37,278 nt of DNA from Candidatus Omnitrophota bacterium (GTDB lineage: Bacteria > Omnitrophota > Gorgyraeia > 2-01-FULL-45-10): NCBI GenBank assembly GCA_041667225.1, contig JBAYFK010000001.1, forward strand, positions 1 through 37,278. The letters are read 5' to 3'. How positions within the stretch are numbered: the stretch's first letter is position 1; every line of letters starts with the position of its first letter. Both the position numbers and the translations under genes were made by a program. Positions 3,066 through 27,157 of this stretch are shown in pieces. The notes beneath the pieces are model-generated. The model ran no database searches and was not told the DNA's origin. It worked only from the letters and a program-made list of their open reading frames with translations.

Positions 3066-3335
3066 TTGGGTTTGACAAAAGAGAAGAAAACGAAACTGAT
3101 ATCTGAATTTAAAGCCAATGAGAAGGATACCGGGTCGCCGAGCGTACAGATAGCGCTGCTTACCGAGAGGATCAATTCTCTTTCGGAGCATTTTAAATCG
3201 CATAAGAGCGACCATCATTCCAGGAGAGGTCTTCTGCGTATGGTAAGCATAAGGAGAAGGCTTTTGGAGTATCTGAAGGGCAGCGATCATAAAGGATATC
3301 AGGATATCATTAAAAAATTGGACCTGAGAAAGTAA
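3066..3335 (+). CDS. rpsO: 30S ribosomal protein S15
   Basis: (M)[56 protein letters not shown]... is a canonical S15 sequence of about 89 aa. TTG 3066 has a GAGAGG SD 5 nt upstream. The track start at 2994 adds a non-homologous extension that covers the leader hairpins. Confidence 0.9.
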
Positions 3336-5509: not shown

Positions 5510-5980
5510 TTGAAGAACATACGGATATCTTTTAAGAGAAAAGTTGGCTCGGAAGACCTGCCGCTGCCCAGATACGCTACGAGCGGATCGAGCGGCATGG
5601 ACTTGTGTGCCGATGTAGAAACAGAAGTCGATATCATGCCAGGCGAGATAAAACTTATTTCGACTGGCATCTATTTAAGCATACCTGAAGGCTATGAAGC
5701 CCAGATCCGGCCGCGAAGCGGGTTAGCCTTAAAACACGGGATCAGCCTTGTGAACACCCCCGGCACGATAGATTCCGACTACCGCGGACTTGTAAGCCTG
5801 ATAATGATAAATCATGGAAAAGTTCCTTTTAAGATCAGGCGCGGCGATAGGGTAGCCCAGATGGTCATAAGCGAAGTAGTCAAAGCCGCTATAGATATCA
5901 AGGAAGAACTGGACGGCACCGTCAGGTCTGCAGGCGGGTTCGGCCATAGCGGCGTCAGGGGTGATAAGGGACATGGATAA
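5510..5980 (+). CDS. dut: dUTP diphosphatase (dUTPase)
   Basis: The five dUTPase motifs are recognisable: PRYATSGSSGMDL, RPRSG, GTIDSDYRG, and C-terminal RSAGGFGHSG. The start is TTG. Confidence 0.9.
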   Translation: MKNIRISFKRKVGSEDLPLPRYATSGSSGMDLCADVETEVDIMPGEIKLISTGIYLSIPEGYEAQIRPRSGLALKHGISLVNTPGTIDSDYRGLVSLIMINHGKVPFKIRRGDRVAQMVISEVVKAAIDIKEELDGTVRSAGGFGHSGVRGDKGHG

Positions 5981-11475: not shown

Positions 11476-11617
11476 TAGAAAATATATATTTCTAGGACCC
11501 GCGATTTTCTGTATAAACTCGGGGGAGTGATCGAGGGTCTTGAAGAAAATAGGTTTACACCATCTTAACTGCATCGCAGATATGGCTATTCTATAGGTGT
11601 GGATCGATTTTCAAGGA

Positions 11618-11657
11618 CCAGATTGCCTAGAAAAAAGAAGGCAATCTGGTTTTTTTA
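11618..11657 (+). terminator. rho-independent terminator-like hairpin (possible attenuator) 35 nt upstream of the giant gene ATG
   Basis: A perfect 10-bp stem, CCAGATTGCC (11618-11627) / GGCAATCTGG (11640-11649), encloses a 12-nt A-rich loop. Eight consecutive T (11650-11657) follow immediately. Confidence 0.6.
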
Positions 11658-11692
11658 TTGCCTCTGTGTTAATAAAATTGAAAGAGAGATTA

Positions 11693-14600
11693 ATGCCTGA
11701 AAGAAAATTTTTCGATCGATCAAATCCGCTGATCAAGACCATCTCTTTAATACTTCTCATCGCTTTCATAGCCCAGGATATAGCATGGGCTGATCCTCAA
11801 ATCTTTTTAAATCAAAGATCATCAGGCGACAAGTTGGCAGCGTCCACTTTTCTGAGGTCCGAAAAGGCCGTAAATAAAGTAAGCGCAAAAGCCATAGAGT
11901 ACGCTGTCGAAGAGTATAGCGCTATTCCCCGTGAAAAGCTCGACGTAGCATGCGTAAGAGCGTCTATAAGAAGTTTATTGGATAAGAATAAGGAATGGTT
12001 CGCTGCGCATGTCAGCTATTCAATGATGTCTCTTGATGGTACGCCCATAGGCGACGATGCGCATGACGGCGATATCGCCGAAGTGGTGGTAAAATTCGCT
12101 CCCGGCTGGTCGGTCAGGTATTTCGATCCCGCAACAGCTAGACCTCAAGAAGGATTCTCCGCTCCCGTAGCAATTAATGACAGGCTCCATAAACAGCTAA
12201 TAACCGGCCCCGGCGACTCTCCTAAGGGGCCGTTCAATTTCTCATTCGGAGAAGGTGTGGGCCTTCGTCATATGGAGGTTAATAATATCATCGCCTTCCA
12301 TGACCTGACCATTGCAAAAAAGGGTAAGTACCATGAAACCGAATTCTATGAGCGTAAGCTGGATGCCGACAAGGATCCAACTTACCATGCAAAAATAGAA
12401 AGAGCCGCAGACCTTCTGATGGCGCAAGGCATCGTTCTTTTTGCAAAAGGCATGGCCTGCACGATAGCGGCGGGAATACCTTTAATAATGCTTTTTACGA
12501 CCCCTCTCGTCGCTATATTCGGTATTTCCATGCTCCCCATAACTTATATATTCGGAAAAAAAGCGCATAAATATTTCATCAGCGCGAAAGGGTACTACGA
12601 TCGCTCCCTAAGCATAAGGGGTGATACCACGGTAGTACTTGTTGATATCCCGTCCCATCTCCTCCTGAGCGGAAAAGAACTGGATGGCTCCAGCTTTTAC
12701 CAGTTCACCCACATAGGAAGGGCCAGGCGCGTGATCTATATGCCGAAGAAGGCATTGCGCGATATGGATATAGCCGATCCCTACGACATGCGCCAACTCG
12801 CGACAATATTGAACCACGATCAGGTCGAGCTCGACATGATGCACAGAGATAACAGGATAGCCGCCGCAAAGACATACGCGGATTACGAAAATCTTCTTAC
12901 GGCCTTTCATGACGCCGCAAAACTTGAAGACCCATTCGGCGAAGCGGCGCATATAGAAGAGCGCATAGCGGGCTGGATGGAGATGGACGATTCCGCAGCT
13001 TCGATACTTAAAAGAGAGATCGAAGAAAAGGTCATGGAATTCGAGATGCGCCAAAGCAATATATTGGATTCGGAAGAATCGCTGGTCAGCGGCCGCTTCT
13101 CATATATATATACTACTGCTAGCATGGCGATGCAGATCGGTTATGCTTATGAGGTTCTGGGCGACCAAAGATCTGCCCACGAGTATTACGGGAAAGCCTG
13201 GTCCAATTTTGTCGAGGTCGTTTCATCTGACGTATATATACTGCCTATCTATGCCCAGCTCAATATAGTAAGGATCAATGCCTTTGAAGGCGACTATGCG
13301 GAAGCGGCCGTGGATTTTAAAAGGCTGACCAATTATGAGATAGGAGTTCCGCACCCGTCCGCTAAATATGTCAAAGGTTCAGTGCGCGTCGTCGAGACCC
13401 ATATCGCGGAAAATATTGAACGGTGGCGCGATGAGGTTTCGGCCCTTATGCGCCACCATGCTCAGGCCTCTGGCGATGTCGGCGGGATGGAAAGGGCGGC
13501 AGCGGCTATTGAAGATATTACGGGAGCTGTCAGTAAATACCTTGGAGAGCAGGAGGTTTTCGAGAAGAGGGAGAAGGAGCGGGCGAGCTATGGCGAACTT
13601 GTGGAAGAGCTGAGGCGCGCTATCCTGATCGGTAACAAACTTTGGGCGGCAAATGTACAGGATGCGCTTTCAGAGAGATTCAAAGGTGAATTACCGGAAG
13701 AAGTAGAGCGGGTGATAAGAGAGACGAGATCGCCGACCGCCGAGATGATCCCGGATGCCGATACGCTTGCAAGCTACATAGACGAACTGGAAAAGGCGGA
13801 GAATATACTTATAGATGAAGAGCAATATGAAAAAAAGGTCTTAAGGCCGCTATTCGACCTTTTGTTATCGTGCCTTGAGAGGGATTTTGACGGGACAGAT
13901 GAATTTGCTGCACATTGCCGCACTGCCATTTCAAAGCAGGATGCGTATGAGCTCCGGATGCAGATGAATAATAAGGACGAGGCGCTTCTCGATAAATTCA
14001 ACAAGATCAGGAGAAAAGACGGTACAGAAGATACTTCTATAGAACTTTATGGACTGCTCCTATTCCACCTTACTGCGGATTCGACGCCTTACATACGCCG
14101 TCTTTATAAAGAATTTATGCAGACCCGCCCGGTCGACAAAATAGCATTTGCACGCAAAGGAGTATCTTATCATACGCGTGGAGACGCAATAATCTATTAT
14201 TATCCCAAGAACCTTCTATTCGAAGGCAGGCGCGCCAATGCCAGAGAAGGACATAGATACGGAGAGGCGAGCGCTCTGGAGGACGCTAAATCCTCGGAGA
14301 ATGCCAGGAAGATCGCGCGGGCTGTTGAAATGTGGAAAACGGCCGCCGAGAACAACCGGGATCTTGACGAGAGGATAAGGCATTTCGAGGACATAACTTC
14401 TATCGTCGAGTTAAATATGAAGACGTCCCTTCTTTTTTCGGATCCACAGCAGAATGTGGTCCGTCCGATCCACTCAGGAAGAAGCCGTCACAGGCTGTAC
14501 CTTTCCAAGCATTATCTCGATTCGCTCGATATAAATAATGAGAGAGACATGAAAGAGCTCGCCACATGGCTCAATTATGGACAGGACTTTCTGGATACGC

Positions 14601-17600
14601 ACGATTTGATGGCGGATGGGGGATATGCGATACCGCGTATACAGAAGGCCCTTTCGAATTTAACATACTCATTTTTTGATCACGAGGATACCGGACTTTT
14701 AGAGCCGGGCTATCTCAAAGAACGGCTTGCGGCGTTCATGGAAGAGGATTTTCTCATCAAGTACAGGGAAGTGCTTCTTGCTGCGATAAAGGAAGAGAAG
14801 GAGGCCGAGGTTACTATGCGCACGATAGTCGAACCCGGCAGGGCCGCTCCTAATGAATATAAATTGGCGAGGAACTCTTATGGCCATCTTCTTTACCGGT
14901 ATGAGGGATTAGGACTTCGCTCCAAGGCTGACAAGGCCTATATGCAGATGACGATCGCTACGTCCGTCGTTCAGACGCACGAAGGCGGCATCACTCCGTG
15001 CACGGATCAGATCGAGCTTGTGCTTACGGCACTGCGTTTCGCGAGATGGGATGATTTCACAAAAGAACTGCGCAAGCTTTTAACAGGAAAAGGTTATCCC
15101 AGGCCTATCGAAAAGTCGGAGCTGCCTCTCGTCATATTTATGTTACGAGGCCGTTTCCAGAACGATCTTCGGCATGCGATCCATGCGCAGAAAGAGGCTG
15201 CCGATCCGTATTCCTACCCGATAGTGGAAAAGGTGGAGAAAGAGGCCGATAAACTTTTGAAAGAATTCTCAGAACACCCGTTCAGCGATCTGGGGCCTAA
15301 GGATGTCCAGGATAGCACAGCGACTCTTTCGTTCATAGGTAAGGCGCTGGGTATAAGATATTCTTCGTTCTTCCATGCTCCGGTCATCGAAGAAAGCGCC
15401 AAGGTGGGCATACCCTTCGGGATATATGCCGTACTCGATGCGGTCAAGCATTCGTTCCCATCCCTTAATGCAGCTATCTTTGCAGGTGCTATCGCCGTAT
15501 TCGGTATCGTCTTTATCATTGCTCATCTATTGAATGAAAGGGCGCCTCCGCGATCGGCAGGAGAAGCGTTCCGTATCTTTGCGGCGCCTGCTGCCGCGAC
15601 CATCGCAGGCGGTATTCTTTCCTATCTCTTTTTTACAAACCCATTATATGCAATTCTCTCAAGCATTCTCGCTCATCTTATTATAAATGCGATCGTTTGG
15701 GCGCTACGCCGTTTAAATATCGACATCAAATACTCGACCGTATATTTTCCGGGTTCTCATCGTGTGACATGGACAGAGATAGAGCGTATACGTGAACTTT
15801 CCGCAAAATGGGACCTTAAGGCTAACGGGTTGAAAAATCTTGAAGATGTGCTTAAAGACCCGGGAGCTGAAAATGTGCGGCGCGCCATACTTGACCTTCT
15901 TGAAGGGGGAACGTATAGCGCGCTCAGCCGTTTCCAGATGTACAAAGAGAGGGAACGCGGGTCAAAAGCGGAATTCCTTGGAGAATTGGTACAGGCGGCC
16001 TCGTGCCAGAGACGCATCAGGTCTTCAAAGGTCATCGAGATGGGTCCCATATTGGCAGGAGCTGAGATCGATGCAGTTGTCGAAGTAGATCATAAGAAGT
16101 ATGCCTCGAGAAGACAGACAGGGCTTACCTATGACCTTCCCGATGGGATATATCTCATGGAAGGGAAGGTTGACGAGTTTGGCGATATAGAACAGTTCAT
16201 CAGCTATATTTTCGAAACAAAACTTGATAAGTATCTGCGGGCCGCGCGGGAATTGAAGAAGAAGGGCAAGAAAGTTTCAGGGATCATATTTGCCGTAGGC
16301 GGCGGCATAGCCAGCTTGAATCCCGAGGAGTTCAGAAAGAGGCTGATCGAGATGGGAGAGTCGGATGAAGAGATCCTCGCCGCCGGCTTTGATCCCGAAA
16401 AATTCAAGGTATACACTTATCTTGTCCCGGAAACTATCTACGAGGAAGGGCCCAAGACCGCGCTTACGCCTAAGGATATAGAATATATCGATGCGGTAAT
16501 GAAAAGGCCGGAAGAGGATGGCTCTATACCGCAAGAGACGCTTTTAGAGTGCCGTTCGGTCCTTGAGCGCGCGCTTCTCCTGTTTGGGCTTGAGAGGGTG
16601 AGATCCGTCTATCTATCCAACCATTTCAGAAGGCACAATGTAAGCCTCGTGGCCCGTACATACGATATTAATGAATATGCGAAAGCCGTGCTCGACCTTA
16701 AGAGCGACATAGCCGAGATCGATAAAGATATGACCTTTGTCATGGACGATTCGTTCATAGCCGAAGATGGAACGGCTCCCGTTCTCGACGGGAAGAAGAC
16801 CGACAGGGTAAGGAACCCCAACTATGAAAAAATGGATTTCACTCTCGGGCAGAAGACGTGGGGGAATTTCGAGATGTTCATATCGAAGGACAGGTCGACC
16901 GTATATGTTTCGTCCGTTGAGAGGGGTTCTGCCGAGTACTTTTCTATCAACATGGATATGGCAGCGCCGCATCCGCTTATGTACCATTCGGGTGATCTGC
17001 ATATAGCGCTTGACGCATCTATCCCGGCCGCATCCTTAAACAACGGACATAATATAAATATGGCCAGGATCATAGGCATCCTCAGAGAGGCGATCGGGTT
17101 CAGAGAGGAAGTTGTAAAACATGATAGATCGGACTACTATTGGATAGACAGGCTGGGCGGCCGGGGAAATGAATTGGTGTCATACGATATTCTGGCTGCC
17201 CATAAGATCCCGCATCTTATGGAATTTGTCGGCCCTCATGCGCTCATACCGGATCTCTATGCGCTCAACGAAAAGAATAGACTTGAATTGCTTGCGGAAT
17301 TTGGCAGGCATAGTCCTGCGGTCCTGGGCAAAAAGTTCGCTTACGGTTACTATGCGATAGTTTCGGTCCCGCAAGGACGCAGGCCGACGAACGAGAAGTT
17401 CCCTCCGGCAGAGGAGCTTATTTTAAGCGCCAGCATGCCGGATAAATTTCTGCGCAGCCCAGCGCAATTCCAGAAAAGCGCCTCAGTGATAGCTGAAGAG
17501 TTCCTTGCAAACCTCAGGATTTTAGCTTCCGAAGAGGATATGAGTATGCCTGTACCTCGCTCGATCATGGTCGAGGATTCATACGGGAATATGAAGATCC

Positions 17601-20600
17601 GTTTTGAACTGGATCCCGTCAGGAAGGTGATCATCTCCGCCTCTGCCGTAGAAATGGTCCGGACGATATCTCAGAAAGACTTGAGAACCGTATTCATGGA
17701 ATCGGAAAGCATCATCACGTCCAGGACGGGTATGGTGGATATATCGAAGGTACGGCCCTCCAAACTCATGAGGTATGGATATGCAAAGATCGTAGGATCT
17801 AACGGTAACATTGTCATAGCTCCTGTCGAAGGCATGATCCAGAGGCCGATGCCGAGAAACTGGGCAATGGGGTTACCGTTCACATCGCTCGCCGTATCTT
17901 TAGCGGGTAAGCGCTCTGTTCCTGACAAGAAAAAATCCGGGAAGAAAGATGCGCCGTCGCCGAAACGGGAAGTCGTATTCGCGATCGATCTGCCGGCTTC
18001 TACTGGATTTGATGACGATGTACGCGAGAGCGAAAAGATATATGAATTTCTGGATGGATTTGAGCAGGATCATAAGGGTAAGCTAGGCGGGCTATTGGAA
18101 GATGTTCTTGAGGAGTTGATCTTTAATGTTACAGATCATGGCCGCGGCGGAAAGATGGTCATATATATGGAGAAAGACGCTGACGGTGAGCCGGCAGCTA
18201 TTGAGATCGTGACAACTGATAACGGGCCGGGGCTGCCCGATAGTCCCGATGATCTTGTAAAGAAAAGCTTGTTGGCACATGAAAGATTTGTTAATAGCCC
18301 GGATGACGAGCCGGAGCCTTTAGACGATGGTATTGATTATGCATTAATGAATGCTTACAGGGGGCAAGGTTTTGCCAGGATAGCCCTTGACCCGGATAGT
18401 GTTACTATTGAGTGTAACGGCTTGAAGTATTCAAGGTCTACAAACGATAAGAATGCTTCCTCATGGTTCGGTGAACCGGTAAAGAGCGAAGTTACGACCG
18501 GCGCCCGTTTCACCCTCGGTTTCTCATTACGGAGCGAAGCTACCCATATTCCTTCTATCCCTGTTGACCGCAGGCCGGTAGATTCAGGGCTTCTGGCTTC
18601 GAGCTTTGTCGAATACGACATGGACGTCAAAGAAACGGTCAACCCTGACAATAAACCTATTAAGGCTCTCTATTGCGCCTCCGGCGCCGATCTCTCGAAT
18701 TTTCTTCTATCGACTAACGCAACCGAAGGATACTTTGTTTCTCACTACCGTGGGCGTTTCCGCACCATGAGGGGCAAAGACCTAAGGGAGTGCTTTGAAA
18801 GCGCGTCACCAGAGGATTATATAAAAAAGAATCTGTCTCCATATTATCGGGAAAAGTTCGAAAGGGGTTTTGCAGGCACGGAAACCTTTTATAGCATGCG
18901 TCAAACGATCGCCGCTATGGCTTTTGAACTGAAGTCGATCGGTGTTGACTTGTCGACCGTAAAGATAGATACGCTTAACGGCCGGCCCGTCTTACGGTTC
19001 CGATGGAAGTATTATGGCTGCGACGAGCGCGATTATTCCGTAGTCCTTATAGACGCCGATGCGACAAAACCGGAGGAGTATGCCGCTGATCTTGCCGGTG
19101 TTGCTATGGATGTATATTATCAGCGCGCTGGGAATGAGCTTCCTATGGAGTACAGGAAAGGAGCAAAAAGCTATATCGGTTGGATATACGCCAGGATGAA
19201 ACCGGGTGCTTATGTCGTGACAGACGACAACGCTTTTGACAATGCCCAGCAATGGTACCGCGACCTTGGCGGCTCCTTTCCACTGCCGGCTAAAGAGGTC
19301 GACATGCCCGAGCTGTGGCCTATAGAGTGGGTCATTCTCAGGGCTCTGCGCCCTATGGATATATTTAACCATGAAGCGGCGTTTTACGGCTGGCGCATGA
19401 CTGTCCGCCAGAAGCCGATCGACGCGGAGATGGTAACGGACGATATAGGTAATCTTGTGAAGGTGTCCAAAAGGCCTTTCCTGGCAAGGATCGTAGCATA
19501 TTTGCGGGGTAAGGGTATTTCGGAGCGGTGGATAGCGTCTTTGGGCGGGCTCGAGGAATTGTTCTTCAGCGGAATTGTAATAAGCGCTTTTGCTGCAGCA
19601 GCGCCCCATATCTTTGCAATTTCATTCTCAGCCGCCCTTTATACAGGTTTTGGCATAAGCGCCGTCCTATTTACGCTCTCACACATTAAAGAAGTTTACA
19701 GGATGACAGGAGGTGCTCTTACTACCGCGCCTCCTTCAGCCTCGGATATGATCTTTATAACGGGATTGGGAATGGCCTTCCGCGCGGTATATCTTGCGGG
19801 GCTGGCCCTGCTCCCATTTGGCCCTTACAATATAGCAGTTGCTTTACCTCTCATAATAGTTCTTCATAGCATTTATAATGCGTTCATAGCCCCAAGATCG
19901 GACCTTGTTCTGGGTATGGCATCAGTGAACCCGGATAAGCCATTCAAAGAACTCACCCGCATAAACTCTTCTATTGCAACCGATACAACCGCCCTTATCA
20001 ATCAGTTATCGAAAAGCTTCTCGTCGGCATATCTGATAATGAACCCTTTGCGCAACATCAAAGCCGGCCTTGCCAGATATGGTTATGTTAAGCGGACCTC
20101 TCTGGAATCATGCCGCCTTGGAATAAGACGTATTCTGGCCACATGGCATCTTTCCGAAACTAAAAAGAAGAAGCTCTCGGCCGCTCTTAACAGGATAGAT
20201 AAGATACTGGCCAAGATGGACCGCATGGACGGGATGATAGACGGTATTGAGCTATTACCTCGCGGCGTAAGCGTCTCTTCCGTCGCATCAGGCCTCAACA
20301 TTTGTGTGATAAGACTGAAGAGCATACTCGAAGGGATCAGGGAAGAGGATGTCCATCTCATCGAAAGACTGGAAGGCATAAGCGCCTCTATTCACGAGAT
20401 GGCAGTCGGGCATGAGGAGATAAACTCTGAAAAATTGATCGGCTATGTAAAGGCATTTAAAGCGATATCGACCCACCAAGGGGTAGGAGATAAGAGCCGC
20501 GCCAGGATATCTCGCCTCGCAGATGACATGAGCGCCTTGTTAGCAAGCGCTAATGAACAGGGTGGAGGATCACGATCCCCGGCAGCCGAGCAGATCGAGA

Positions 20601-23600
20601 CATCACTCTTTGATTCGGAAGATATGAGCCTTATTGACAGGATGTGGATAGCTATGCCAGTCCAGGATGGACGTGATTGGAGCGCTGCCGTAGAAGAGCT
20701 GCAATCCAGGTTCAGCAAAGATCATCCGGGAGACCTCCAGGTAATAGAAGAAGGGGCGTCTTATGACATAGATGAGCGCGTATCGGACCGGTTGGTTAAG
20801 TATGTCGAATCCATTGGCGGGAAACATGCCGGTGACGTACATATAATGACGTCTACTATAAGCGCTGCGCTGCAAAATGTGTATCAGCACGGGGATAATT
20901 ACGGAGCTATGATATTAAGGGCCAGGCGCACGGGCCGAAAGATGGAAGTGGAATTTGTAATAATAGACCGCGGACAAGGGTTTATCGACCGCCAAGGTAA
21001 GCATGTGGATATCCACGAAGCCGTTAAATACGGGAAGTCTTTCGGCGCGAACGGCCAAAGCGGTATAGGGCTGACCATTACCGTTGAGGTGGCCGATAGC
21101 ATTTCTATTACGACCGTCGACAGATCTTCCGGGTCATCGGAGGCTTACTACTGGGAGAAGGGGGACGTTCATGAGTCCCGTCTGAAAACTGCGCCTGTTG
21201 AGAGCGGTTCAAAGATAGTCTTTACCAGAGAGGTCGATTTAACTCCGGAGCCCGATGATCCGAAGGGCGAAAACGTTGCAGTAGAGCCGGCCGCTCAAAG
21301 CGTTGACATTGTTAAATGGTATTTTGAAGAATATGAACCTTCTCAAGTTGAAATGGCCGCATCGTTCAACGATGGGACTCTTACGGGGGACCATATAATA
21401 GAATGGGTAGACCGTGTGGTACGTCCACTAAAGCCGGACTTAGATGTTACCGGGATCGTTGAAACGGGCAAACCATTCACGCCGCGTCAGGCAGGGCTCT
21501 TAGGTGAAAAGATCTTGAAAGATGTCCTTATCCCGCACGGTATCATTGCGCATGTGTCGGCCGTTGCTTCAGGTGTAGCTGTCGGATCGATAACTAATAC
21601 GGAGACGATAACAACACCTGCGGGACGTACGATACCTTTATATACGGTGCGTACTCTGAGAGGTGAATTCGGCCAAGGGACAGCTTTTGCCGAATATGTC
21701 ATCGTGCCGGAAGAGATAGCCAAGGAGTCTCATGAAATTGCAGATCATTATGCCAAACTATGGCGTGACCACATGGAAGGGCGCGCTCCTGCCGCTCTTT
21801 TCAGATACCAGAAGCGGTATGCGGAATGGATCTTTATGCATCTTTTCGGTAAGTCCGATGCCGCTGCTGCCGCGCGCCTCGTCCGTGAATGTGACCTTGC
21901 AGAGGAGCTGAGCCATTCTGATATGCAGGCTTTTACGGAGACGGTATTAGAAAGGCCTCTCGACACGGCGGTACCTGAGGATGTAGAGGCGGCAAGCCAC
22001 GCGATACTTAAACCCGCATCTATCGAAGAGCTCGCCTTTGAAGCAGCCCGCGACGGCGAAACTCGTTATATCCTCGCTGAGGCAGTTCTTGAGGTTGAAG
22101 CAAAGCTTAATGCTATAATACGCTCGCCGATGAGCGCCTATAATTTCCTCGAGTTCCTGCACGGAAATGTCGTCGACCTGCATATACCCGGTGATGAGCC
22201 GCCGGAATATAACGTTGCCAGGAATATACTCCTATCCGTTATGAGTAAACACCTTTTCGGCAAGAGCACTACGGACACTCGCGAGTGGAGAGACTATCTT
22301 GACGAGACGTTATGGAATATGGACGAATTTAATGCTGCCCTGAAGAAGGCGGCCGCCGCGGCTTACCGCGAAGAATTCTTGAGTCACGATGAAAGAGTAA
22401 AGAAGGCCGAAGGATATAAAACAAGGCGCCGGCACACGGAACTCTACACTAACATGTATAGGGAGCTCGTAAGGCCGCGTTTTGCGCTGGGCGCGCCAAA
22501 GGTCCTTAACATCTGCTCCGGCGCGGGCGCCAGCGCAATATTGTATGCGACTAACTGCTCCTCATCGGTCATGATCGACAGGCTGTCCTTCGGATATAAC
22601 GCAGGAGTGATGAGCGGCCGGTCTGAGCGGACAGAACGGGAGCGATATTTTAATGATATCGCTCAATATGATTTTCCCCGGACTGACACTCTCACAGGGA
22701 TCGGATCTCTCTGGCTTCCTCTTAAGTGGGAGCTGGCAGAGATGGGTATAGGAGAGGATGCGATCACGGTGGATAATCCTGCATATGGCACGTGGCGCGT
22801 CCGTTTTACGTGGCAGCATCCCGACGATGATCAGCCGCGCGAGAGGACATTGTGGTTCTATCAGGAGGACATTCCCGAATCATCGGGCGTTGCCGATCTT
22901 TCGGCCGGCGTAAGGCTTGACGCTCAAAAGGTGGACATCCTGGATGCCGATATACTCTTCGACAGAGCCGCCGAACACACTTTGCGCGCGACTACCGATA
23001 TGCCGCTCTATATGAAACGCAAAAGCATAGTGATCACCGATAATCCGGTCAGAAAAAATATATTCGATACACAGGATTCTCTCGTTCCCGTAACGCTAGA
23101 TCCGGCCCTTTCGGAACAGTCCAGCCGTTTCGGATATGTAGGGAAAAATACGTATGAAAAACATGACGCGCTTGATGCTATGGCGGTCTACGAAGTCCGG
23201 GGTTCGTCTAACGGGTTTTCCGGAGATAACGTCAATATTTATAGCGCAGACTCGCTTACCGGAGAAGAGAGGGATAGGCTCGCCCGTTTTGTGATACGGG
23301 AAGGGCTCGATATAAGTACTACATATATAGGAGAAGATGAACGCGGTATTGAGCTTGGCCGCGCCTATCTCGACAGGTTGACCAGGAAGAACGAGAGCGG
23401 GGAGAGTGGATATTTTGTAGCTTTTAAAGGAGGGGATCCGGTAGGTATCGTCAGTTATGCGGTTCTTCCCGGATGGCTTGCAGCCGAAAGAGAATACGAG
23501 TCTACCATAGACGATCTGTACGTTACCGGTAGCGTCAGAAATCAGGGGATAGCAGCAGATCTCGTGCGGCAGGCCGAAACGCATTTACGAAAGAAGAACG

Positions 23601-26600
23601 TCAAAAATTACTATGTCGTAGTAGGGCAGGGTGCCCCGTCTCAGGACTTCTGGAAAAAATTTATTCCCCGGGAATATCAGACCGTGGATGACAAAGGTGA
23701 GCTCTTTTCATCGATCGTTCCTTTTGAGAACCCAAGAGAGATAGCTCGGGTGGAGGCATGTATAAAAGCCGTGAAGGCGGGCGCGTTCCAGAACGGCAAC
23801 GTGGTCGACTTAAGAAGGATACCGCCCGATATGGAGGTCATTATCGTTGGGGATCTCCATGCGCGGGTGGATAATCTCGGCAATATCCTTGAGCATGCGG
23901 ATCCCGGGACCGGCAAGAGCGTATATGAAAAGGTCAGGGACGGCGAGGCGGTACTCATACTGCTTGGCGATGTGGTGAACAACGATCCTCCGGATACTGA
24001 AAATATCGCGGCCATTGCGGAGCGCCTCTCTTCGATGGAAGAGTCCGTCGATATGATCAAAAAGGTCATGGACCTGAAGATCTCCCATCCGGATAGCGTC
24101 TACTACGTGCTCGGCAATCATGATGATCCTTTTTCCATGTGCAATAGAGGCGGGATAGATCAGTCGAGGATATACAGGGATACGATCCGGTCGCGTTACG
24201 GCGAGAGATATCTTTATCTCTATAACGATCTTATTCAGGCGAGCCCGGTAATGGTCATAGCAGAAGGTCTTGTAGCCACGCATGCTGCCCCAATAAGAAG
24301 GCTCTCTCTTGAGAATATAATCAATGCCGATAAAGATTCTGATGAGATACATTTCGGGATGTGGGGGCGCCATGAATCCCATTTTGGAGATCTGGTCGAT
24401 ATTTCGGAAGACTCGAGTCCCCTCCGCCAGCTGCTTTATCAGTCGCGCAGGGAGCAGTCGTACGACAGCAGAGATGTTGTTGAATTCCTCGATAGGGTCG
24501 GCCAAAAAGACGGCGTATTCATCGTAGGCCATACACCTGATCTTATACCGGAAGGCGATTTCCACGCCGAGATCGAGGATAGACATCACATTATATATGC
24601 CGCGCGCGATAAGACGGGATACGCTTCGTTCACAGCCGGCAAGCTCGATTTTGTGGAAACGTCCGCCGTTGAAATGCCGCGCGTAGAAAGATCATCGCCA
24701 ACGCCATCGTCCGGTCTTAAGCTTGCCGACAAAGTCCTTTTAGCGCTGCCGATCGAGGAACAGCAGAGAGTGGACGCGGTGGTGCGTTTTGCCGCGCATG
24801 TGATGAGGCTTAGCGGAATAGGAGATGCAGATCTGGAAAAGGAAGCCGCTTTCGACGCCATCCCTGCTTCGACTGTAGCGGCGTTCATGCTGGCCGAGAG
24901 AGATAAAGACGCTAAACTTGACAGTTATGATGAGAGCTGGGAGGCGGACGCGATAATATTTTTAGGTCATAACCATCCGTTATTCAAAGATACTAAAGTG
25001 ACGCCGAAACTGAGCATACGCGTTCTTTTCGAGATGCGTAAGCGCGGTATGCAGGTTTCAGAATATTGTATTTCCATGTGCGATTCCGTAGATAAGCTCG
25101 TATCATTCCTTTTGAACGGCCCGCTCGAAGAGAAAGAGAGGATGGCCCGCGCAACCCTTATGATAGAAGAGCTTGGAATGAAAGATCTCATCCCATGGTC
25201 GGCCGCAGCGCTCGACAGGATATCTCTTTACGCTGAATGGGCCGGTACACCCGACGAAGCGCGCGTTGCGTGCTCTTTCCTGGAGCATTTCACCGGGCAC
25301 CTTTTTGAGTCACGCGCCATGGCAGATGCGTTCATGTTCAATCTGTCCGTGGTGGAGGGTTTCCTTGGCCCAGGCAATATAAATAACAAGGATACGGGGG
25401 TCGTCTATCTTCTCGGCGGGGCAAGCCTGCTGTACGACCAGGCCAGACAGATCGCCTTATCTTTAAAGGTCAGTCCTTCGCGTATACATCCGTTCTCTTT
25501 GAACAGGAAGACGGCTGAAAGCGATGACGAGACGATAAGGGAATACATAAAACAGGAAGGCCTCGACCGCTATAAAAATCTCGTCATAGTCGACACAGGG
25601 TTCCATGGCAGCATGGCGCGCCGTCTTAAAGATGTATTGGGATCGATGCCGAACTCTCCCCGTAACGTACACGCGAGACTTTTGGCGATGAGCTCAGAAC
25701 CGTATGAATACAAGGGTATGGATGTTCTGGGATATAACCATGTTCTTCAGGAGGTAGATCCAAATTGGTCCGAGATCGATAGGAACGCTCTTTTCTTAAT
25801 AACCCATCTCCTCGATAACATATTCCCAAAACGCGAACAGTCGCCCGGCCGTCTCGATACTGCGAACGTTCTCGTGGCCGTCACTCCGGTTACTGTACCT
25901 TCGGAAGTGCCAGGTTTTGCAGCTATAGTGTCCAACGAGATGCGACTCGGTACGGGCAGATTATTATCACGCGGTTTCGAATATCCCGATCCGGGGAATA
26001 GCGTGTGGGAGAGATGGATTCCCTCCGGAAAAGATGAAATGGAAGGCGCTCCAGCGGCGGAAATTCCGGACCTTCTCGACAGTACGGTCAGGGGCAACGC
26101 TTCATACGGTAAATTGAAACAGGAATTGACATCCCGGTTTACGCGTCTCGGCCAGAAGGGCGTTTCTTTAGATAGTGTGGAGGATGTTCTCGATGAAAAT
26201 AGCGTAGAGATCTTCCAGGCGATGTGGGGCCTGAGGAACATCTTTACCGGTTCCAAGTTTTCTGATGAAAGGGCGCAGACGGATATGTGCTATGAGGTGA
26301 GCGTGGCTGTATGCGAAGCTTTTGACGAAGCGGTCCCCGGCCATGAAATCGTCCTCATGAGCGGATATTATGACGATGCCGGAGGCGGGCTCTTTAGAAT
26401 ACCTCATTTCTGGGTAGTGATAGACGGCGATATCGCAATAGACCTTACATACGGACAGTTCGATAGCGAATACGAGGATACCGCTCTCGTTGTCCGGACC
26501 GGAGAGCTCCCGCGGTACAAGCTGGAGCAGGGGAAGGTGGCTCCTTGGAAGAGCGCTCCTAGACCCCAGACATCAGTAGCCGCTACCATTTCAGCCATAC

Positions 26601-27157
26601 ATTATGCGTTGAAGACCGACGCTTCTCATCAGGCCGGGTCGAGGATACTTCTTTCTGCCAGCTTATTTGATGATATCGACCGCTCAAATCTTGAAAGATT
26701 GTTCAATGGCACAAATATAGAGATAGTGGAGCCGGAAGAGCTCAAGCGCAGGACGATGAACGAACATTCTTCCAAAGAAAACCTTGCGGTCGTGCTTACG
26801 CAGGAAGATTTCACGCAGGGTAAGACGTGGAGCGGCGCCGAAGATGATTACAGGGTGAAGTCGAGCGTGCTCATATTGGGAGACAAGCTGACCGGTTCTA
26901 ATTATTTATATCTGGAAGGCGTGATAGAGCTTGCCAGAGCGATGATGCGTTCGGATAGAAATGGTATTAAAGAGGCATACGAGCTCATATCCGGCGCCAT
27001 TCTTAGCGATGAGGCCTTGAGTAAGCTCGGGCCTTCGCCCAACACCATAGCGTTCGCGATCAATGCGATACTCAAGTTCAGGCCCATAGTAGTGCACGAT
27101 ACGGGAGAGTTGGAAAGATTTAAGAGCATGGTAGAGCGTTATCTTATAAACGCATAA
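11693..27157 (+). CDS. giant multidomain polytopic membrane protein (about 5,150 aa) of unknown function, with CPBP-like x2, GHKL ATPase-like x2, GNAT, metallophosphatase and Cys-His-Asp papain/transglutaminase-like signatures
   Basis: A single open frame runs 15.5 kb with no stop. I chose ATG 11693 (MPERKFFDRSNPLIKTISLILLIAFIAQDIAWADP, a signal anchor), because the track start GTG 11597 would translate through the terminator-like hairpin. Domain motifs are detailed in the findings. Product name and function are unknown. Confidence 0.9.
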   Translation: MPERKFFDRSNPLIKTISLILLIAFIAQDIAWADPQIFLNQRSSGDKLAASTFLRSEKAVNKVSAKAIEYAVEEYSAIPREKLDVACVRASIRSLLDKNKEWFAAHVSYSMMSLDGTPIGDDAHDGDIAEVVVKFAPGWSVRYFDPATARPQEGFSAPVAINDRLHKQLITGPGDSPKGPFNFSFGEGVGLRHMEVNNIIAFHDLTIAKKGKYHETEFYERKLDADKDPTYHAKIERAADLLMAQGIVLFAKGMACTIAAGIPLIMLFTTPLVAIFGISMLPITYIFGKKAHKYFISAKGYYDRSLSIRGDTTVVLVDIPSHLLLSGKELDGSSFYQFTHIGRARRVIYMPKKALRDMDIADPYDMRQLATILNHDQVELDMMHRDNRIAAAKTYADYENLLTAFHDAAKLEDPFGEAAHIEERIAGWMEMDDSAASILKREIEEKVMEFEMRQSNILDSEESLVSGRFSYIYTTASMAMQIGYAYEVLGDQRSAHEYYGKAWSNFVEVVSSDVYILPIYAQLNIVRINAFEGDYAEAAVDFKRLTNYEIGVPHPSAKYVKGSVRVVETHIAENIERWRDEVSALMRHHAQASGDVGGMERAAAAIEDITGAVSKYLGEQEVFEKREKERASYGELVEELRRAILIGNKLWAANVQDALSERFKGELPEEVERVIRETRSPTAEMIPDADTLASYIDELEKAENILIDEEQYEKKVLRPLFDLLLSCLERDFDGTDEFAAHCRTAISKQDAYELRMQMNNKDEALLDKFNKIRRKDGTEDTSIELYGLLLFHLTADSTPYIRRLYKEFMQTRPVDKIAFARKGVSYHTRGDAIIYYYPKNLLFEGRRANAREGHRYGEASALEDAKSSENARKIARAVEMWKTAAENNRDLDERIRHFEDITSIVELNMKTSLLFSDPQQNVVRPIHSGRSRHRLYLSKHYLDSLDINNERDMKELATWLNYGQDFLDTHDLMADGGYAIPRIQKALSNLTYSFFDHEDTGLLEPGYLKERLAAFMEEDFLIKYREVLLAAIKEEKEAEVTMRTIVEPGRAAPNEYKLARNSYGHLLYRYEGLGLRSKADKAYMQMTIATSVVQTHEGGITPCTDQIELVLTALRFARWDDFTKELRKLLTGKGYPRPIEKSELPLVIFMLRGRFQNDLRHAIHAQKEAADPYSYPIVEKVEKEADKLLKEFSEHPFSDLGPKDVQDSTATLSFIGKALGIRYSSFFHAPVIEESAKVGIPFGIYAVLDAVKHSFPSLNAAIFAGAIAVFGIVFIIAHLLNERAPPRSAGEAFRIFAAPAAATIAGGILSYLFFTNPLYAILSSILAHLIINAIVWALRRLNIDIKYSTVYFPGSHRVTWTEIERIRELSAKWDLKANGLKNLEDVLKDPGAENVRRAILDLLEGGTYSALSRFQMYKERERGSKAEFLGELVQAASCQRRIRSSKVIEMGPILAGAEIDAVVEVDHKKYASRRQTGLTYDLPDGIYLMEGKVDEFGDIEQFISYIFETKLDKYLRAARELKKKGKKVSGIIFAVGGGIASLNPEEFRKRLIEMGESDEEILAAGFDPEKFKVYTYLVPETIYEEGPKTALTPKDIEYIDAVMKRPEEDGSIPQETLLECRSVLERALLLFGLERVRSVYLSNHFRRHNVSLVARTYDINEYAKAVLDLKSDIAEIDKDMTFVMDDSFIAEDGTAPVLDGKKTDRVRNPNYEKMDFTLGQKTWGNFEMFISKDRSTVYVSSVERGSAEYFSINMDMAAPHPLMYHSGDLHIALDASIPAASLNNGHNINMARIIGILREAIGFREEVVKHDRSDYYWIDRLGGRGNELVSYDILAAHKIPHLMEFVGPHALIPDLYALNEKNRLELLAEFGRHSPAVLGKKFAYGYYAIVSVPQGRRPTNEKFPPAEELILSASMPDKFLRSPAQFQKSASVIAEEFLANLRILASEEDMSMPVPRSIMVEDSYGNMKIRFELDPVRKVIISASAVEMVRTISQKDLRTVFMESESIITSRTGMVDISKVRPSKLMRYGYAKIVGSNGNIVIAPVEGMIQRPMPRNWAMGLPFTSLAVSLAGKRSVPDKKKSGKKDAPSPKREVVFAIDLPASTGFDDDVRESEKIYEFLDGFEQDHKGKLGGLLEDVLEELIFNVTDHGRGGKMVIYMEKDADGEPAAIEIVTTDNGPGLPDSPDDLVKKSLLAHERFVNSPDDEPEPLDDGIDYALMNAYRGQGFARIALDPDSVTIECNGLKYSRSTNDKNASSWFGEPVKSEVTTGARFTLGFSLRSEATHIPSIPVDRRPVDSGLLASSFVEYDMDVKETVNPDNKPIKALYCASGADLSNFLLSTNATEGYFVSHYRGRFRTMRGKDLRECFESASPEDYIKKNLSPYYREKFERGFAGTETFYSMRQTIAAMAFELKSIGVDLSTVKIDTLNGRPVLRFRWKYYGCDERDYSVVLIDADATKPEEYAADLAGVAMDVYYQRAGNELPMEYRKGAKSYIGWIYARMKPGAYVVTDDNAFDNAQQWYRDLGGSFPLPAKEVDMPELWPIEWVILRALRPMDIFNHEAAFYGWRMTVRQKPIDAEMVTDDIGNLVKVSKRPFLARIVAYLRGKGISERWIASLGGLEELFFSGIVISAFAAAAPHIFAISFSAALYTGFGISAVLFTLSHIKEVYRMTGGALTTAPPSASDMIFITGLGMAFRAVYLAGLALLPFGPYNIAVALPLIIVLHSIYNAFIAPRSDLVLGMASVNPDKPFKELTRINSSIATDTTALINQLSKSFSSAYLIMNPLRNIKAGLARYGYVKRTSLESCRLGIRRILATWHLSETKKKKLSAALNRIDKILAKMDRMDGMIDGIELLPRGVSVSSVASGLNICVIRLKSILEGIREEDVHLIERLEGISASIHEMAVGHEEINSEKLIGYVKAFKAISTHQGVGDKSRARISRLADDMSALLASANEQGGGSRSPAAEQIETSLFDSEDMSLIDRMWIAMPVQDGRDWSAAVEELQSRFSKDHPGDLQVIEEGASYDIDERVSDRLVKYVESIGGKHAGDVHIMTSTISAALQNVYQHGDNYGAMILRARRTGRKMEVEFVIIDRGQGFIDRQGKHVDIHEAVKYGKSFGANGQSGIGLTITVEVADSISITTVDRSSGSSEAYYWEKGDVHESRLKTAPVESGSKIVFTREVDLTPEPDDPKGENVAVEPAAQSVDIVKWYFEEYEPSQVEMAASFNDGTLTGDHIIEWVDRVVRPLKPDLDVTGIVETGKPFTPRQAGLLGEKILKDVLIPHGIIAHVSAVASGVAVGSITNTETITTPAGRTIPLYTVRTLRGEFGQGTAFAEYVIVPEEIAKESHEIADHYAKLWRDHMEGRAPAALFRYQKRYAEWIFMHLFGKSDAAAAARLVRECDLAEELSHSDMQAFTETVLERPLDTAVPEDVEAASHAILKPASIEELAFEAARDGETRYILAEAVLEVEAKLNAIIRSPMSAYNFLEFLHGNVVDLHIPGDEPPEYNVARNILLSVMSKHLFGKSTTDTREWRDYLDETLWNMDEFNAALKKAAAAAYREEFLSHDERVKKAEGYKTRRRHTELYTNMYRELVRPRFALGAPKVLNICSGAGASAILYATNCSSSVMIDRLSFGYNAGVMSGRSERTERERYFNDIAQYDFPRTDTLTGIGSLWLPLKWELAEMGIGEDAITVDNPAYGTWRVRFTWQHPDDDQPRERTLWFYQEDIPESSGVADLSAGVRLDAQKVDILDADILFDRAAEHTLRATTDMPLYMKRKSIVITDNPVRKNIFDTQDSLVPVTLDPALSEQSSRFGYVGKNTYEKHDALDAMAVYEVRGSSNGFSGDNVNIYSADSLTGEERDRLARFVIREGLDISTTYIGEDERGIELGRAYLDRLTRKNESGESGYFVAFKGGDPVGIVSYAVLPGWLAAEREYESTIDDLYVTGSVRNQGIAADLVRQAETHLRKKNVKNYYVVVGQGAPSQDFWKKFIPREYQTVDDKGELFSSIVPFENPREIARVEACIKAVKAGAFQNGNVVDLRRIPPDMEVIIVGDLHARVDNLGNILEHADPGTGKSVYEKVRDGEAVLILLGDVVNNDPPDTENIAAIAERLSSMEESVDMIKKVMDLKISHPDSVYYVLGNHDDPFSMCNRGGIDQSRIYRDTIRSRYGERYLYLYNDLIQASPVMVIAEGLVATHAAPIRRLSLENIINADKDSDEIHFGMWGRHESHFGDLVDISEDSSPLRQLLYQSRREQSYDSRDVVEFLDRVGQKDGVFIVGHTPDLIPEGDFHAEIEDRHHIIYAARDKTGYASFTAGKLDFVETSAVEMPRVERSSPTPSSGLKLADKVLLALPIEEQQRVDAVVRFAAHVMRLSGIGDADLEKEAAFDAIPASTVAAFMLAERDKDAKLDSYDESWEADAIIFLGHNHPLFKDTKVTPKLSIRVLFEMRKRGMQVSEYCISMCDSVDKLVSFLLNGPLEEKERMARATLMIEELGMKDLIPWSAAALDRISLYAEWAGTPDEARVACSFLEHFTGHLFESRAMADAFMFNLSVVEGFLGPGNINNKDTGVVYLLGGASLLYDQARQIALSLKVSPSRIHPFSLNRKTAESDDETIREYIKQEGLDRYKNLVIVDTGFHGSMARRLKDVLGSMPNSPRNVHARLLAMSSEPYEYKGMDVLGYNHVLQEVDPNWSEIDRNALFLITHLLDNIFPKREQSPGRLDTANVLVAVTPVTVPSEVPGFAAIVSNEMRLGTGRLLSRGFEYPDPGNSVWERWIPSGKDEMEGAPAAEIPDLLDSTVRGNASYGKLKQELTSRFTRLGQKGVSLDSVEDVLDENSVEIFQAMWGLRNIFTGSKFSDERAQTDMCYEVSVAVCEAFDEAVPGHEIVLMSGYYDDAGGGLFRIPHFWVVIDGDIAIDLTYGQFDSEYEDTALVVRTGELPRYKLEQGKVAPWKSAPRPQTSVAATISAIHYALKTDASHQAGSRILLSASLFDDIDRSNLERLFNGTNIEIVEPEELKRRTMNEHSSKENLAVVLTQEDFTQGKTWSGAEDDYRVKSSVLILGDKLTGSNYLYLEGVIELARAMMRSDRNGIKEAYELISGAILSDEALSKLGPSPNTIAFAINAILKFRPIVVHDTGELERFKSMVERYLINA

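Follow-up and report, generated by a model that had tools for sequence, protein, structure and literature searches.

The 37,278-nucleotide stretch of contig JBAYFK010000001.1 analyzed here (positions 1 to 37,278, assembly GCA_041667225.1, Candidatus Omnitrophota bacterium), referred to below as the window, encodes a giant protein that contains two widely separated clusters of four membrane helices. Each cluster, or module, carries the motifs EE, FxxxH and HxxxN in the order found in the CPBP (Rce1-like) family of intramembrane proteases, modeled by Pfam accession PF02517. We give a probability of roughly 0.6 to the reading that both stretches are minimal and divergent CPBP-superfamily domains that keep the catalytic residues, insert into the membrane, and act as membrane-embedded peptidases. 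The parts of this reading differ in strength. Homology of the modules to CPBP is very probable, activity as peptidases would have even odds or slightly better by analogy with characterized enzymes, and cleavage of the giant protein by its own modules seems rather unlikely.

The gene occupies one uninterrupted open reading frame (ORF) at 11597-27157 on the forward strand, 5,186 codons long when counted from the GTG at 11597, and residue numbers throughout refer to this 5,186-codon ORF. The real start is probably the ATG at 11693 (Met33), because the ortholog P0001 aligns and begins at residue 33, and because the NCBI record for the product gives the length that follows from that start.

11693..27157, forward strand: giant gene, 5,154 aa from ATG 11693

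By exact-sequence look-up, the product is MFA6609229.1, 'GNAT family N-acetyltransferase [Candidatus Omnitrophota bacterium]', 5,154 aa. The syntenic ortholog P0001, from assembly GCA_041643025.1, is 4,816 aa long, has 71% sequence identity, and lies in the same gene neighborhood. A further database entry, P0010, stands for the 90%-identity cluster of the window's own protein, and bears the JGI (Joint Genome Institute) name 'anti-sigma regulatory factor (Ser/Thr protein kinase)'.

A preliminary description of this DNA had quoted six peptide strings as CPBP motifs, and all six are found at their places in the translation of the ORF. The module 1 strings are HAPVIEESAKVGIPFG at aa 1260 (nt 15374), FGIVFIIAHLLN at aa 1302, and SSILAHLIINAIVW at aa 1355, while module 2 has GGLEELFFSG at aa 2650, LFTLSHIK at aa 2691, and IIVLHSIYNAF at aa 2753. 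The codons given for the key residues are right as well, both in module 1 (EE 15389-15394, His 15524, His 15674, and Asn 15686) and in module 2 (EE 19553-19558, His 19682, His 19865, and Asn 19877). Hydrophobic segments are few in a Kyte-Doolittle scan of the giant protein, which finds an N-terminal signal-like helix, a hairpin at aa 273-325, a weak segment at about aa 3310-3333, and two four-segment clusters. The scan bears out the placement of both motif sets within hydrophobic, multi-helix stretches, as the six motif strings all lie inside the only two four-segment clusters. The ordered pattern EE-x(25-60)-FxxxH-x(35-75)-HxxxN has exactly two occurrences in the giant protein, both at the modules, as compared to 0.02 per protein in 2,000 composition-preserving shuffles (probability of two or more, 0.002). 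The ordered motif triple therefore exceeds what chance would provide.

The module limits originally drawn around these motifs hold as far as the motif positions go, but the conserved units, as delimited by alignment to relatives described below, are longer, at about nt 15314-15739 and 19442-19921. The module 1 unit consists of an N-flank element (...LSFIGKALGIRYSSFFHAP), four membrane helices, designated a through d, and a C-flank ending ...IDIKYS. Its parts are as follows.

15314..15739, forward strand: module 1, whole conserved unit, aa 1240-1381, from family alignment A5 and the extended alignment
15374..15445, forward strand: module 1 helix a, with motif 1 residues E1265 and E1266 (15389-15394) and K1269 (15401-15403); AlphaFold helix 14-37
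15458..15532, forward strand: module 1 helix b, with motif 2 residues F1306 (15512-15514) and H1310 (15524-15526) at its predicted cytoplasmic end; AlphaFold helix 42-66
15557..15628, forward strand: module 1 helix c, a spacer, equivalent to Rce1 TM6 (transmembrane helix 6); AlphaFold helix 75-98 and hhalign register
15641..15712, forward strand: module 1 helix d, with motif 3 residues H1360 (15674-15676) and N1364 (15686-15688); AlphaFold helix 103-126

Helix b is followed by the loop NERAPP, with APP at nt 15542-15550, and the b/c loop of sequences of the module-1 type is rich in Lys and Arg. The module 2 unit begins with an amphipathic element upstream of its four membrane helices, has a beta-hairpin loop between two of these, and closes with a C-flank ending ...LVLGMA.

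19442..19921, forward strand: module 2, whole conserved unit, aa 2616-2775, from family alignment A6 and the extended alignment
19523..19615, forward strand: module 2 helix a, with motif 1 residues E2653 and E2654 (19553-19558) and S2658 (19568-19570); AlphaFold helix 7-37
19625..19678, forward strand: module 2 helix b, with F2692 (19670-19672) and H2696 (19682-19684) at and just past its predicted cytoplasmic end; AlphaFold helix 41-58
19694..19735, forward strand: module 2 b/c loop, probably cytoplasmic, with a predicted beta-hairpin VYRM-TGG-ALTTA, then PP; AlphaFold strands 64-68 and 71-75
19739..19810, forward strand: module 2 helix c, a spacer; AlphaFold helix 79-102
19820..19897, forward strand: module 2 helix d, with motif 3 residues H2757 (19865-19867) and N2761 (19877-19879); AlphaFold helix 106-131

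The APP of this b/c loop is at nt 19727-19735, and the pattern 'vYrl..G.l..aPP' is conserved in the module-2-type family. Departures from the consensus in motif 1 had been pointed out for both modules, and they are real. Motif 1 of module 1 is EESAKVG, in which Val aligns to the canonical Arg and Lys stands one position before it, and motif 1 of module 2 is EELFFSG, in which S2658 occupies the CPBP Arg position.

AlphaFold2, applied to the family alignments, produced for module 1 a model of four long helices (14-37, 42-66, 75-98, and 103-126) with a predicted local distance difference test score (pLDDT) of 89.5 and a predicted template modeling score (pTM) of 0.82. For module 2, with pLDDT 96.3 and pTM 0.88, it produced four helices plus a beta-hairpin in the loop that follows motif 2. 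In these models helix a has the Glu pair at its N-terminal start, helix b has the motif-2 His at its C-terminal end, and helix d has the His and Asn of motif 3 between its middle and its C-terminus. Given such positions within an up-down-up-down bundle, the models would bring the Glu, His, and His/Asn positions at or towards the same membrane face. The distribution of basic residues suggests which face this may be. Per module, Lys and Arg together number 7.3 and 7.8, for the two families, in the flanks plus the b/c loop, versus 0.4 and 0.1 in the two short loops. By the positive-inside rule, this bias in the sequences suggests that the module ends, the long loop, and the motif-bearing face are cytoplasmic, and cytoplasmic flanks would fit the cytoplasm-type enzyme domains that neighbor the modules.

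Relatives were collected by an exhaustive HMMER search of 1.84 billion representative proteins. The query profile, A4, was built from a three-row alignment and joins the two modules, such that positions 1-133 represent module 1 and positions 128-267 represent module 2. It finds 48 proteins at E <= 1e-3, 24 at E <= 1e-10, and 5 at E <= 1e-30. Two of the 48, the ortholog P0001 and the cluster representative P0010, are not independent of the window, which leaves 46 others. A protein with such modules is consequently less of an oddity than the preliminary description supposed when it called the two-module architecture unusual, as related modules occur in at least 46 other representative proteins. 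Nearly all of the 48 are large, from 700 to 7,993 aa. A given protein matches one half of the profile, that of module 1 or that of module 2, and only P0001 has a strong match to both, while several (P0011, P0012, P0013, P0020, P0023, and P0024) carry two or three module copies. All named relatives are from Candidatus Omnitrophota except P0022 and P0031, both of the module-2 type, which come from metagenome-assembled genomes labeled Elusimicrobiota. Those labels could represent a real wider distribution, or could be a binning or labeling issue.

In some relatives an insertion interrupts the module in the loop that follows motif 2, its length ranging from tens of residues to about 185. Those of about 185 residues occur in module-1-type copies of P0012 (aa 5484-5552 and 5737-5784) and of P0027 (aa 2921-2985 and 3170-3217), and they suggest that this loop, probably cytoplasmic, tolerates whole inserted domains. 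At locus L018 (JGI contig Ga0467060_0492299, nt 1-639), in an ORF that is open at the contig start, a stop codon comes right after a module-2-type copy (...LKPILALLKSA*), so a module can end a protein C-terminally. The 192-residue P0026 was considered as a possible free-standing module and rejected, because its ORF runs off the contig start and the sequence shows only a C-terminally placed module. Neither module 1 by itself nor the merged family alignment retrieved anything in a word-indexed protein search, and because even the known ortholog was missed, that search is silent on distribution. Scans of GTDB genome contigs and JGI metagenome contigs with the module-1 alignment confirmed no locus.

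The family alignments show which residues have been kept. Alignment A5, for the module-1 type, has 19 sequences that, the ortholog excepted, are 29-44% identical to the window. Its invariant columns are E1265, K1269, P1273, H1310, and H1360, and at least 90% conservation is seen for F1306, P1331, and N1364. Counts at the motif positions are 19/19 for E1265, 16/19 for E1266, 19/19 for K1269, 18/19 for the Phe, 19/19 for H1310, 19/19 for H1360, and 18/19 for the Asn. Alignment A6, for the module-2 type, has 24 sequences, 27-44% identical to the window with the same exception, in which E2654, H2696, and H2757 are invariant (24/24 each). At other motif positions we find E2653 in 21/24, the Ser of motif 1 in 18/24, F2692 in 21/24, and N2761 in 20/24, with Asp in two and Ser in two of the remainder. 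Over both families, the Glu is present in 43/43 sequences, both His residues in 43/43, the Phe in 39/43, and Asn or Asp in 40/43. Because the columns that are invariant or most conserved are the CPBP active-site positions, selection has kept those residues constant.

The two module types are homologous to each other, with an hhalign probability of 80% (E 1.4e-5) and with EE, FxxxH, and HxxxN all in register, and a joint MAFFT alignment of both families reveals a common 'APP' loop after motif 2. BLASTP comparison of module 1 with module 2 finds no similarity. Rather than two copies of one unit, as they had been described, the modules represent two distinct sister families, related only at the profile level.

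Each family has conserved elements flanking its helices. In the module-1 type, '...G[YF]xSL..IG..L.I.YSPFxHAP' comes before the helices and '[YF]-A-[ST]' after them (15314-15373 and 15731-15739 in the window). In the module-2 type the corresponding elements are 'P[LT]GM[IV]PW[LV]W..I.P.L' and 'AP....LGMA' (19442-19522 and 19910-19921). Conservation breaks off abruptly beyond these elements, in module 1 right after the Y-A/S position. Within each type, the upstream and downstream elements are loosely alike (G[YF]xSL and [YF]A[ST]; P[LT]GM and LGMA). The flank elements could be interfacial helices, a clasp, or cleavage sites.

Homology to CPBP was also examined by profile-profile comparison with verified family members. 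A hand-written CPBP consensus served only as tblastn bait against a plasmid collection, from which 16 matches were taken, spanning Bacteroidota, Bacillota, Pseudomonadota, Cyanobacteriota, Actinomycetota, and one haloarchaeon. Annotation names fifteen of them CPBP or type II CAAX endopeptidase genes, the locus of the other (L002) being unannotated, and all 16 match PF02517, with a best E-value of 1.1e-25. Against the full-length reference set (A8), hhalign gives the module-1 type (A5) a probability of 70% (E 4.1e-5) and the module-2 type (A6) a probability of 66% (E 5.6e-5). Against the set trimmed to its core, the values are 90.3% (E 1.5e-6) for the module-1 type, 77.8% (E 1.9e-5) for the module-2 type, and 92.8% (E 4e-7) for the merged profile (A7). 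The alignments span the whole CPBP core and have all three motifs in register. Controls with reversed references gave E-values of 0.15-0.45, and 60 column permutations that kept composition and hydrophobicity scored 10.5 ± 2, with a maximum of 17.4, versus 39.3 and 33.2 for the real comparisons.

Direct searches point the same way with less force. PF02517 is the top Pfam family for each module independently, with E-values of 1e-4 to 2e-3, which agrees with the family named in the preliminary description, but the scores lie only at its gathering threshold of 22.4 bits. Module 1 scores 21.4 bits as a 209-aa query, 23.0 as one of 137 aa, and 18.9 and 16.3 as part of longer ones, while module 2 scores 20.4, 22.1, 18.6, or 15.4 bits, varying with how the query is cut. 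On Pfam and direct searches alone, the CPBP reading would at most be a plausible lead. The earlier assignment to CPBP is thus upheld at the profile level, in homology and in the order of the three motifs, and is left at threshold by Pfam and without a significant Foldseek match to Rce1. The label 'glutamic metalloproteases' that went with it should be dropped, as CPBP enzymes are now regarded as glutamic endopeptidases (PMC11980579).

A number of results weigh against viewing the modules as CPBP peptidases. The Pfam scores of the two modules straddle the gathering threshold, as noted, and only five of 43 family members reach E <= 0.01 against PF02517 (1/19 of the module-1 type and 4/24 of the module-2 type). 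NCBIfam models find nothing significant in 39 family members, the best being one weak match to a myxosortase-core model at E 0.033. Searches of PDB sequences by phmmer and hmmsearch, with single modules and with family profiles, returned only chance matches and did not reach Rce1, and the hand-made CPBP consensus likewise had no match to 4CAD in PDB. As a positive control, the profile of the 16 reference CPBP proteins does reach MmRce1 (4CAD, the only solved member), at E 1e-6, and because even this verified profile does so with just 31.9 bits, the negative PDB results are weak evidence. Foldseek comparison of both models with PDB gave no match at E <= 0.001, and 4CAD was absent from the top 50, short all-helical queries being a weak case for the method. 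Against viral predicted structures (BFVD), module 1 finds entries named 'CAAX protease' at ranks 2, 8, and 31, all non-significant with E 0.75 or more, the best of these having a probability of 0.82 and a TM-score of 0.47. Each cluster has four hydrophobic segments only, with hydrophilic flanks, so that the Rce1 helices TM1-TM3, which form the substrate cavity, are absent. Both module types have lost the Arg of EExxxR, which all 16 references keep, one type having an invariant Lys one position earlier and the other Ser. Finally, several CPBP/Abi homologs (SpdC and Abx1) have been reported to act without proteolysis, and conserved motifs are therefore no proof of activity.

Some of these points lend themselves to the main rival explanation, in which the modules would descend from CPBP but no longer cleave, and would serve only as four-helix anchors or scaffolds, keeping the giant chain on the inner membrane or docking it to membrane-protein partners, with polar residues serving for packing or for the binding of a ligand or metal. 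Loss of the canonical motif-1 Arg in both types and absence of the extra helices of full-length CPBPs would suit such a role, and the occurrence of modules between very varied domains is what a generic tether might show. There is also precedent, as the Abi-domain proteins SpdC of S. aureus and Abx1 of streptococci have been reported to work through protein-protein contacts with histidine kinases. In this regard, a HATPase_c domain is found directly upstream of two module-2-type copies (P0028 and P0038), and sensor histidine kinase genes adjoin four of the 16 reference CPBP genes (L005, L009, L012, and L017), so that both the modules and their stand-alone counterparts echo reported links of Abi domains to histidine kinases. 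What makes this explanation unlikely, though not negligible, is the pattern of conservation. Across sequences only about 30% identical, the invariant columns are exactly the catalytic residues (Glu, His, and His in 43/43, with Asn/Asp in 40/43), and a pure anchor would have no need for buried charged residues in a helix bundle.

Far less probable is a second rival, that unrelated four-helix membrane segments resemble CPBP by convergence or by chance, through hydrophobic composition and short motifs, for although it would suit the threshold Pfam scores, the lack of NCBIfam, PDB-sequence, or significant Foldseek matches, and the lack of BLASTP similarity between the two modules, it must contend with two independent families that align to the CPBP profile over its whole core with three motifs in register, with column permutations and reversed profiles that never come near the real scores, with an ordered motif triple expected 0.02 times per shuffle, and with the weakness of PDB negatives when true CPBPs reach 4CAD with just 31.9 bits. 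We also considered, and rejected, identity with the PrsW family of intramembrane peptidases (PF13367). Module 1 has a negligible score to that model (E 0.3, 11 bits over 38 residues) and module 2 has none, and four helices only do not match the eight-helix, four-motif architecture of PrsW.

If the modules are CPBP peptidases, as we favor, their mode of action can be sketched from enzymes already studied. The CPBP domain of Rce1 and of the myxosortase MrtX is formed by TM4-TM7, and in the mechanism of MmRce1 and MrtX the Glu and the motif-2 His activate a water molecule, while the His and Asn of HxxxN form an oxyanion hole (PMC11980579). Each module would then comprise the four core helices equivalent to Rce1 TM4-TM7, inserted in the inner membrane as an up-down-up-down bundle, with both of its ends and the neighboring soluble enzyme domains remaining in the cytoplasm. 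Helix a would carry the motif-1 Glu where it starts on the cytoplasmic side, helix b the motif-2 His where it returns to that side, and helix d the His and Asn of motif 3 in its middle to cytoplasmic portion, giving a site that faces the cytoplasm. If the chemistry follows that of Rce1 and MrtX, the water for hydrolysis would be held by the Glu and the motif-2 His, with the His/Asn pair forming the oxyanion hole. The modules might in this way staple a long cytoplasmic chain to the membrane at intervals and also act as membrane-embedded peptidases on putative substrates.

The domains that surround module 2 in the giant protein, and those nearer its C-terminus, are listed here.

18095..18295, forward strand: weak HATPase_c-like domain upstream of module 2 (PF02518, E 1e-3, 20.0 bits, below cut-off)
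20867..21115, forward strand: weak HATPase_c_2 domain, anti-sigma-factor-kinase-like, downstream of module 2 (PF13581, E 1.5e-4, 22.2 bits, below cut-off)
23390..23659, forward strand: GNAT acetyltransferase domain (PF00583, E 2.6e-10)
23831..24535, forward strand: calcineurin-like metallophosphoesterase domain (PF00149, E 1.9e-8)

The first of these stretches is homologous to P0008 and P0009. Outside the GNAT, metallophosphoesterase, two HATPase-like, and two module regions, about 85% of the 5,154-aa protein is without a Pfam match even at E <= 1. Pfam detects no SecA_DEAD, C39, or S8 domain in the giant protein, and self-BLAST shows no internal repeat.

Among relatives, the domains that immediately precede a module include glycogen phosphorylase, dCMP deaminase, PPDK/PEP-utilising, HPr, GNAT, HATPase_c, HEAT, and TPR domains. 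We looked for a fixed partner domain beside the modules and rejected the idea, since no relation is seen between the flanks in one protein and those in another, and the Pfam domains upstream vary widely. Similarity between the flanks of module copies is confined to orthologs and internal duplicates, and the modules therefore appear to be independent cassettes shuffled among mosaic proteins. Comparison with the ortholog P0001 is instructive here. About 530 residues of the window's protein (aa 2103-2630, nt ~17903-19486), ending at the upstream edge of module 2, have no counterpart in P0001. It seems, then, that cassette gain or loss occurs at module borders. The segment in question contains the HATPase_c-like domain and an unknown domain homologous to P0006, and P0001 is otherwise collinear.

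An extension of the peptidase reading would treat the modules as self-processing 'punctuation marks', each cutting the giant chain at or near its own conserved flank elements. The candidate elements would be G-[YF]-x-S-L upstream and [YF]-A-[ST] downstream for the module-1 type, and P-[LT]-G-M upstream and L-G-M-A downstream for the module-2 type. Cleavage there would release or re-partition the neighboring cytoplasmic enzyme domains. We regard this as a doubtful proposal, attractive mainly for what it would mean. If true, the giant genes of Omnitrophota would encode membrane-tethered polyproteins matured by intramembrane glutamic proteases, a bacterial counterpart to the maturation of viral polyproteins.

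Two hydrophobic features precede the modules in the giant protein.

11693..11794, forward strand: N-terminal signal-like hydrophobic helix, aa 33-66, with hydropathy peak at aa 45-63 and the end ...AQDIAWA-D
12413..12571, forward strand: hydrophobic stretch at aa 273-325, one to two spans by hydropathy scan, followed by a Lys-rich segment

The N-terminal helix is probably a Sec signal or an anchor, with putative cleavage at its end. Giant homologs P0001-P0005, retrieved with the whole protein, likewise start with a hydrophobic helix that closes on a conserved '...QDI(A/S)WA-x-P'. From its residues it resembles a Sec signal whose cleavage site is Ala-x-Ala, and it may be the mark of a whole class of Omnitrophota giant proteins. 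The stretch at aa 273-325, whose counterpart in P0003 is a single span, probably returns the chain to the cytoplasm, a predicted topology. Elsewhere in the window, the giant gene has housekeeping genes to either side, namely DHH phosphoesterase, TruB, RibF, PNPase, FtsK, RodZ, MiaB, PgsA, and PgpA upstream, and LigT, CinA, RecA, RecX, AlaS, and HisD/B/H/A downstream. No tRNA genes and no Rfam families at the gathering threshold were found across window positions 1-37278.

The giant genes of Omnitrophota are among the least understood features of uncultured bacteria, and the literature on them asks whether their products act as a single chain or as cut pieces. Two recurrent, unannotated domain families that carry catalytic residues, and that appear to share a compartment with the flanking enzymes, are candidates for built-in processing or tethering. 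They would extend the CPBP superfamily to a minimal four-helix, Arg-less form inside multi-domain proteins, and would help to define the smallest functional CPBP core. If they turn out to be anchors without activity, the gain is smaller, two new membrane-staple domains that descend from a protease fold. The families are useful for annotation in either case, as the window's protein is named only 'GNAT family N-acetyltransferase'.

Omnitrophota giant proteins have been described as mosaic and membrane-associated, with many helices, and cutting by built-in C39 or S8 peptidase domains has been proposed (West-Roberts et al. 2023 preprint; 2026 complete-genome preprint). Neither West-Roberts et al. 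2023 nor the 2026 complete-genome preprint mentions CAAX, CPBP, or Rce1-like domains, and no pairing of 'Omnitrophota' with 'CAAX' was found in the literature searched. The proteins of those preprints are above 10-30 thousand amino acids (kaa), and the window's protein, from the same phylum, is 5.2 kaa. Given this silence in the giant-gene preprints, the annotation of the protein only as GNAT, and a related idea already known for PrsW, what is new is a pair of CPBP-like families, unannotated, four-helix, and Arg-less, that are found inside giant proteins as cassettes, in some cases more than once.

Compared to Rce1/CPBP proteins proper (PF02517; 4CAD; the myxosortase MrtX), the modules are alike in how the motifs are placed over four consecutive membrane helices, with EE on the first, FxxxH where the second ends, and HxxxN on the fourth. 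They differ in having these four core helices only, with no N-terminal helices, and in replacement of the motif-1 Arg (Lys one position earlier in the module-1 type, Ser in the module-2 type). Their cytoplasmic loop after motif 2 is longer, with a conserved 'APP' and, in the module-2 type, a predicted beta-hairpin. They are embedded in proteins of thousands of residues, sometimes in two to three copies, and their sequences are at the limit of Pfam detection with no structural match.

Stand-alone CPBP/Abi proteins include the 16 plasmid-borne reference proteins, the bacteriocin-immunity-type Abi proteins, SpdC, Abx1, and MroQ. They share the core fold and motifs with the modules, some are small (a Listeria plasmid protein has 152 aa), and both groups associate with histidine-kinase-type ATPase proteins or domains. 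The stand-alone proteins are encoded by separate genes of 150-330 aa and match PF02517 with E-values down to 1e-25, whereas the modules are internal, with unrelated cytoplasmic enzyme domains around them.

A precedent for a peptidase of this kind built into a large multi-domain protein is PrsW, a membrane-embedded peptidase and distant CPBP relative that is found fused to polymorphic toxins and has been proposed to process its own protein (Zhang et al. 2012, PMC3482391). In the PrsW-toxin proteins the peptidase has eight helices and four motifs, stands at the N-terminus, and is linked to toxin export, whereas the modules described here are internal, with flanks that are apparently cytoplasmic.

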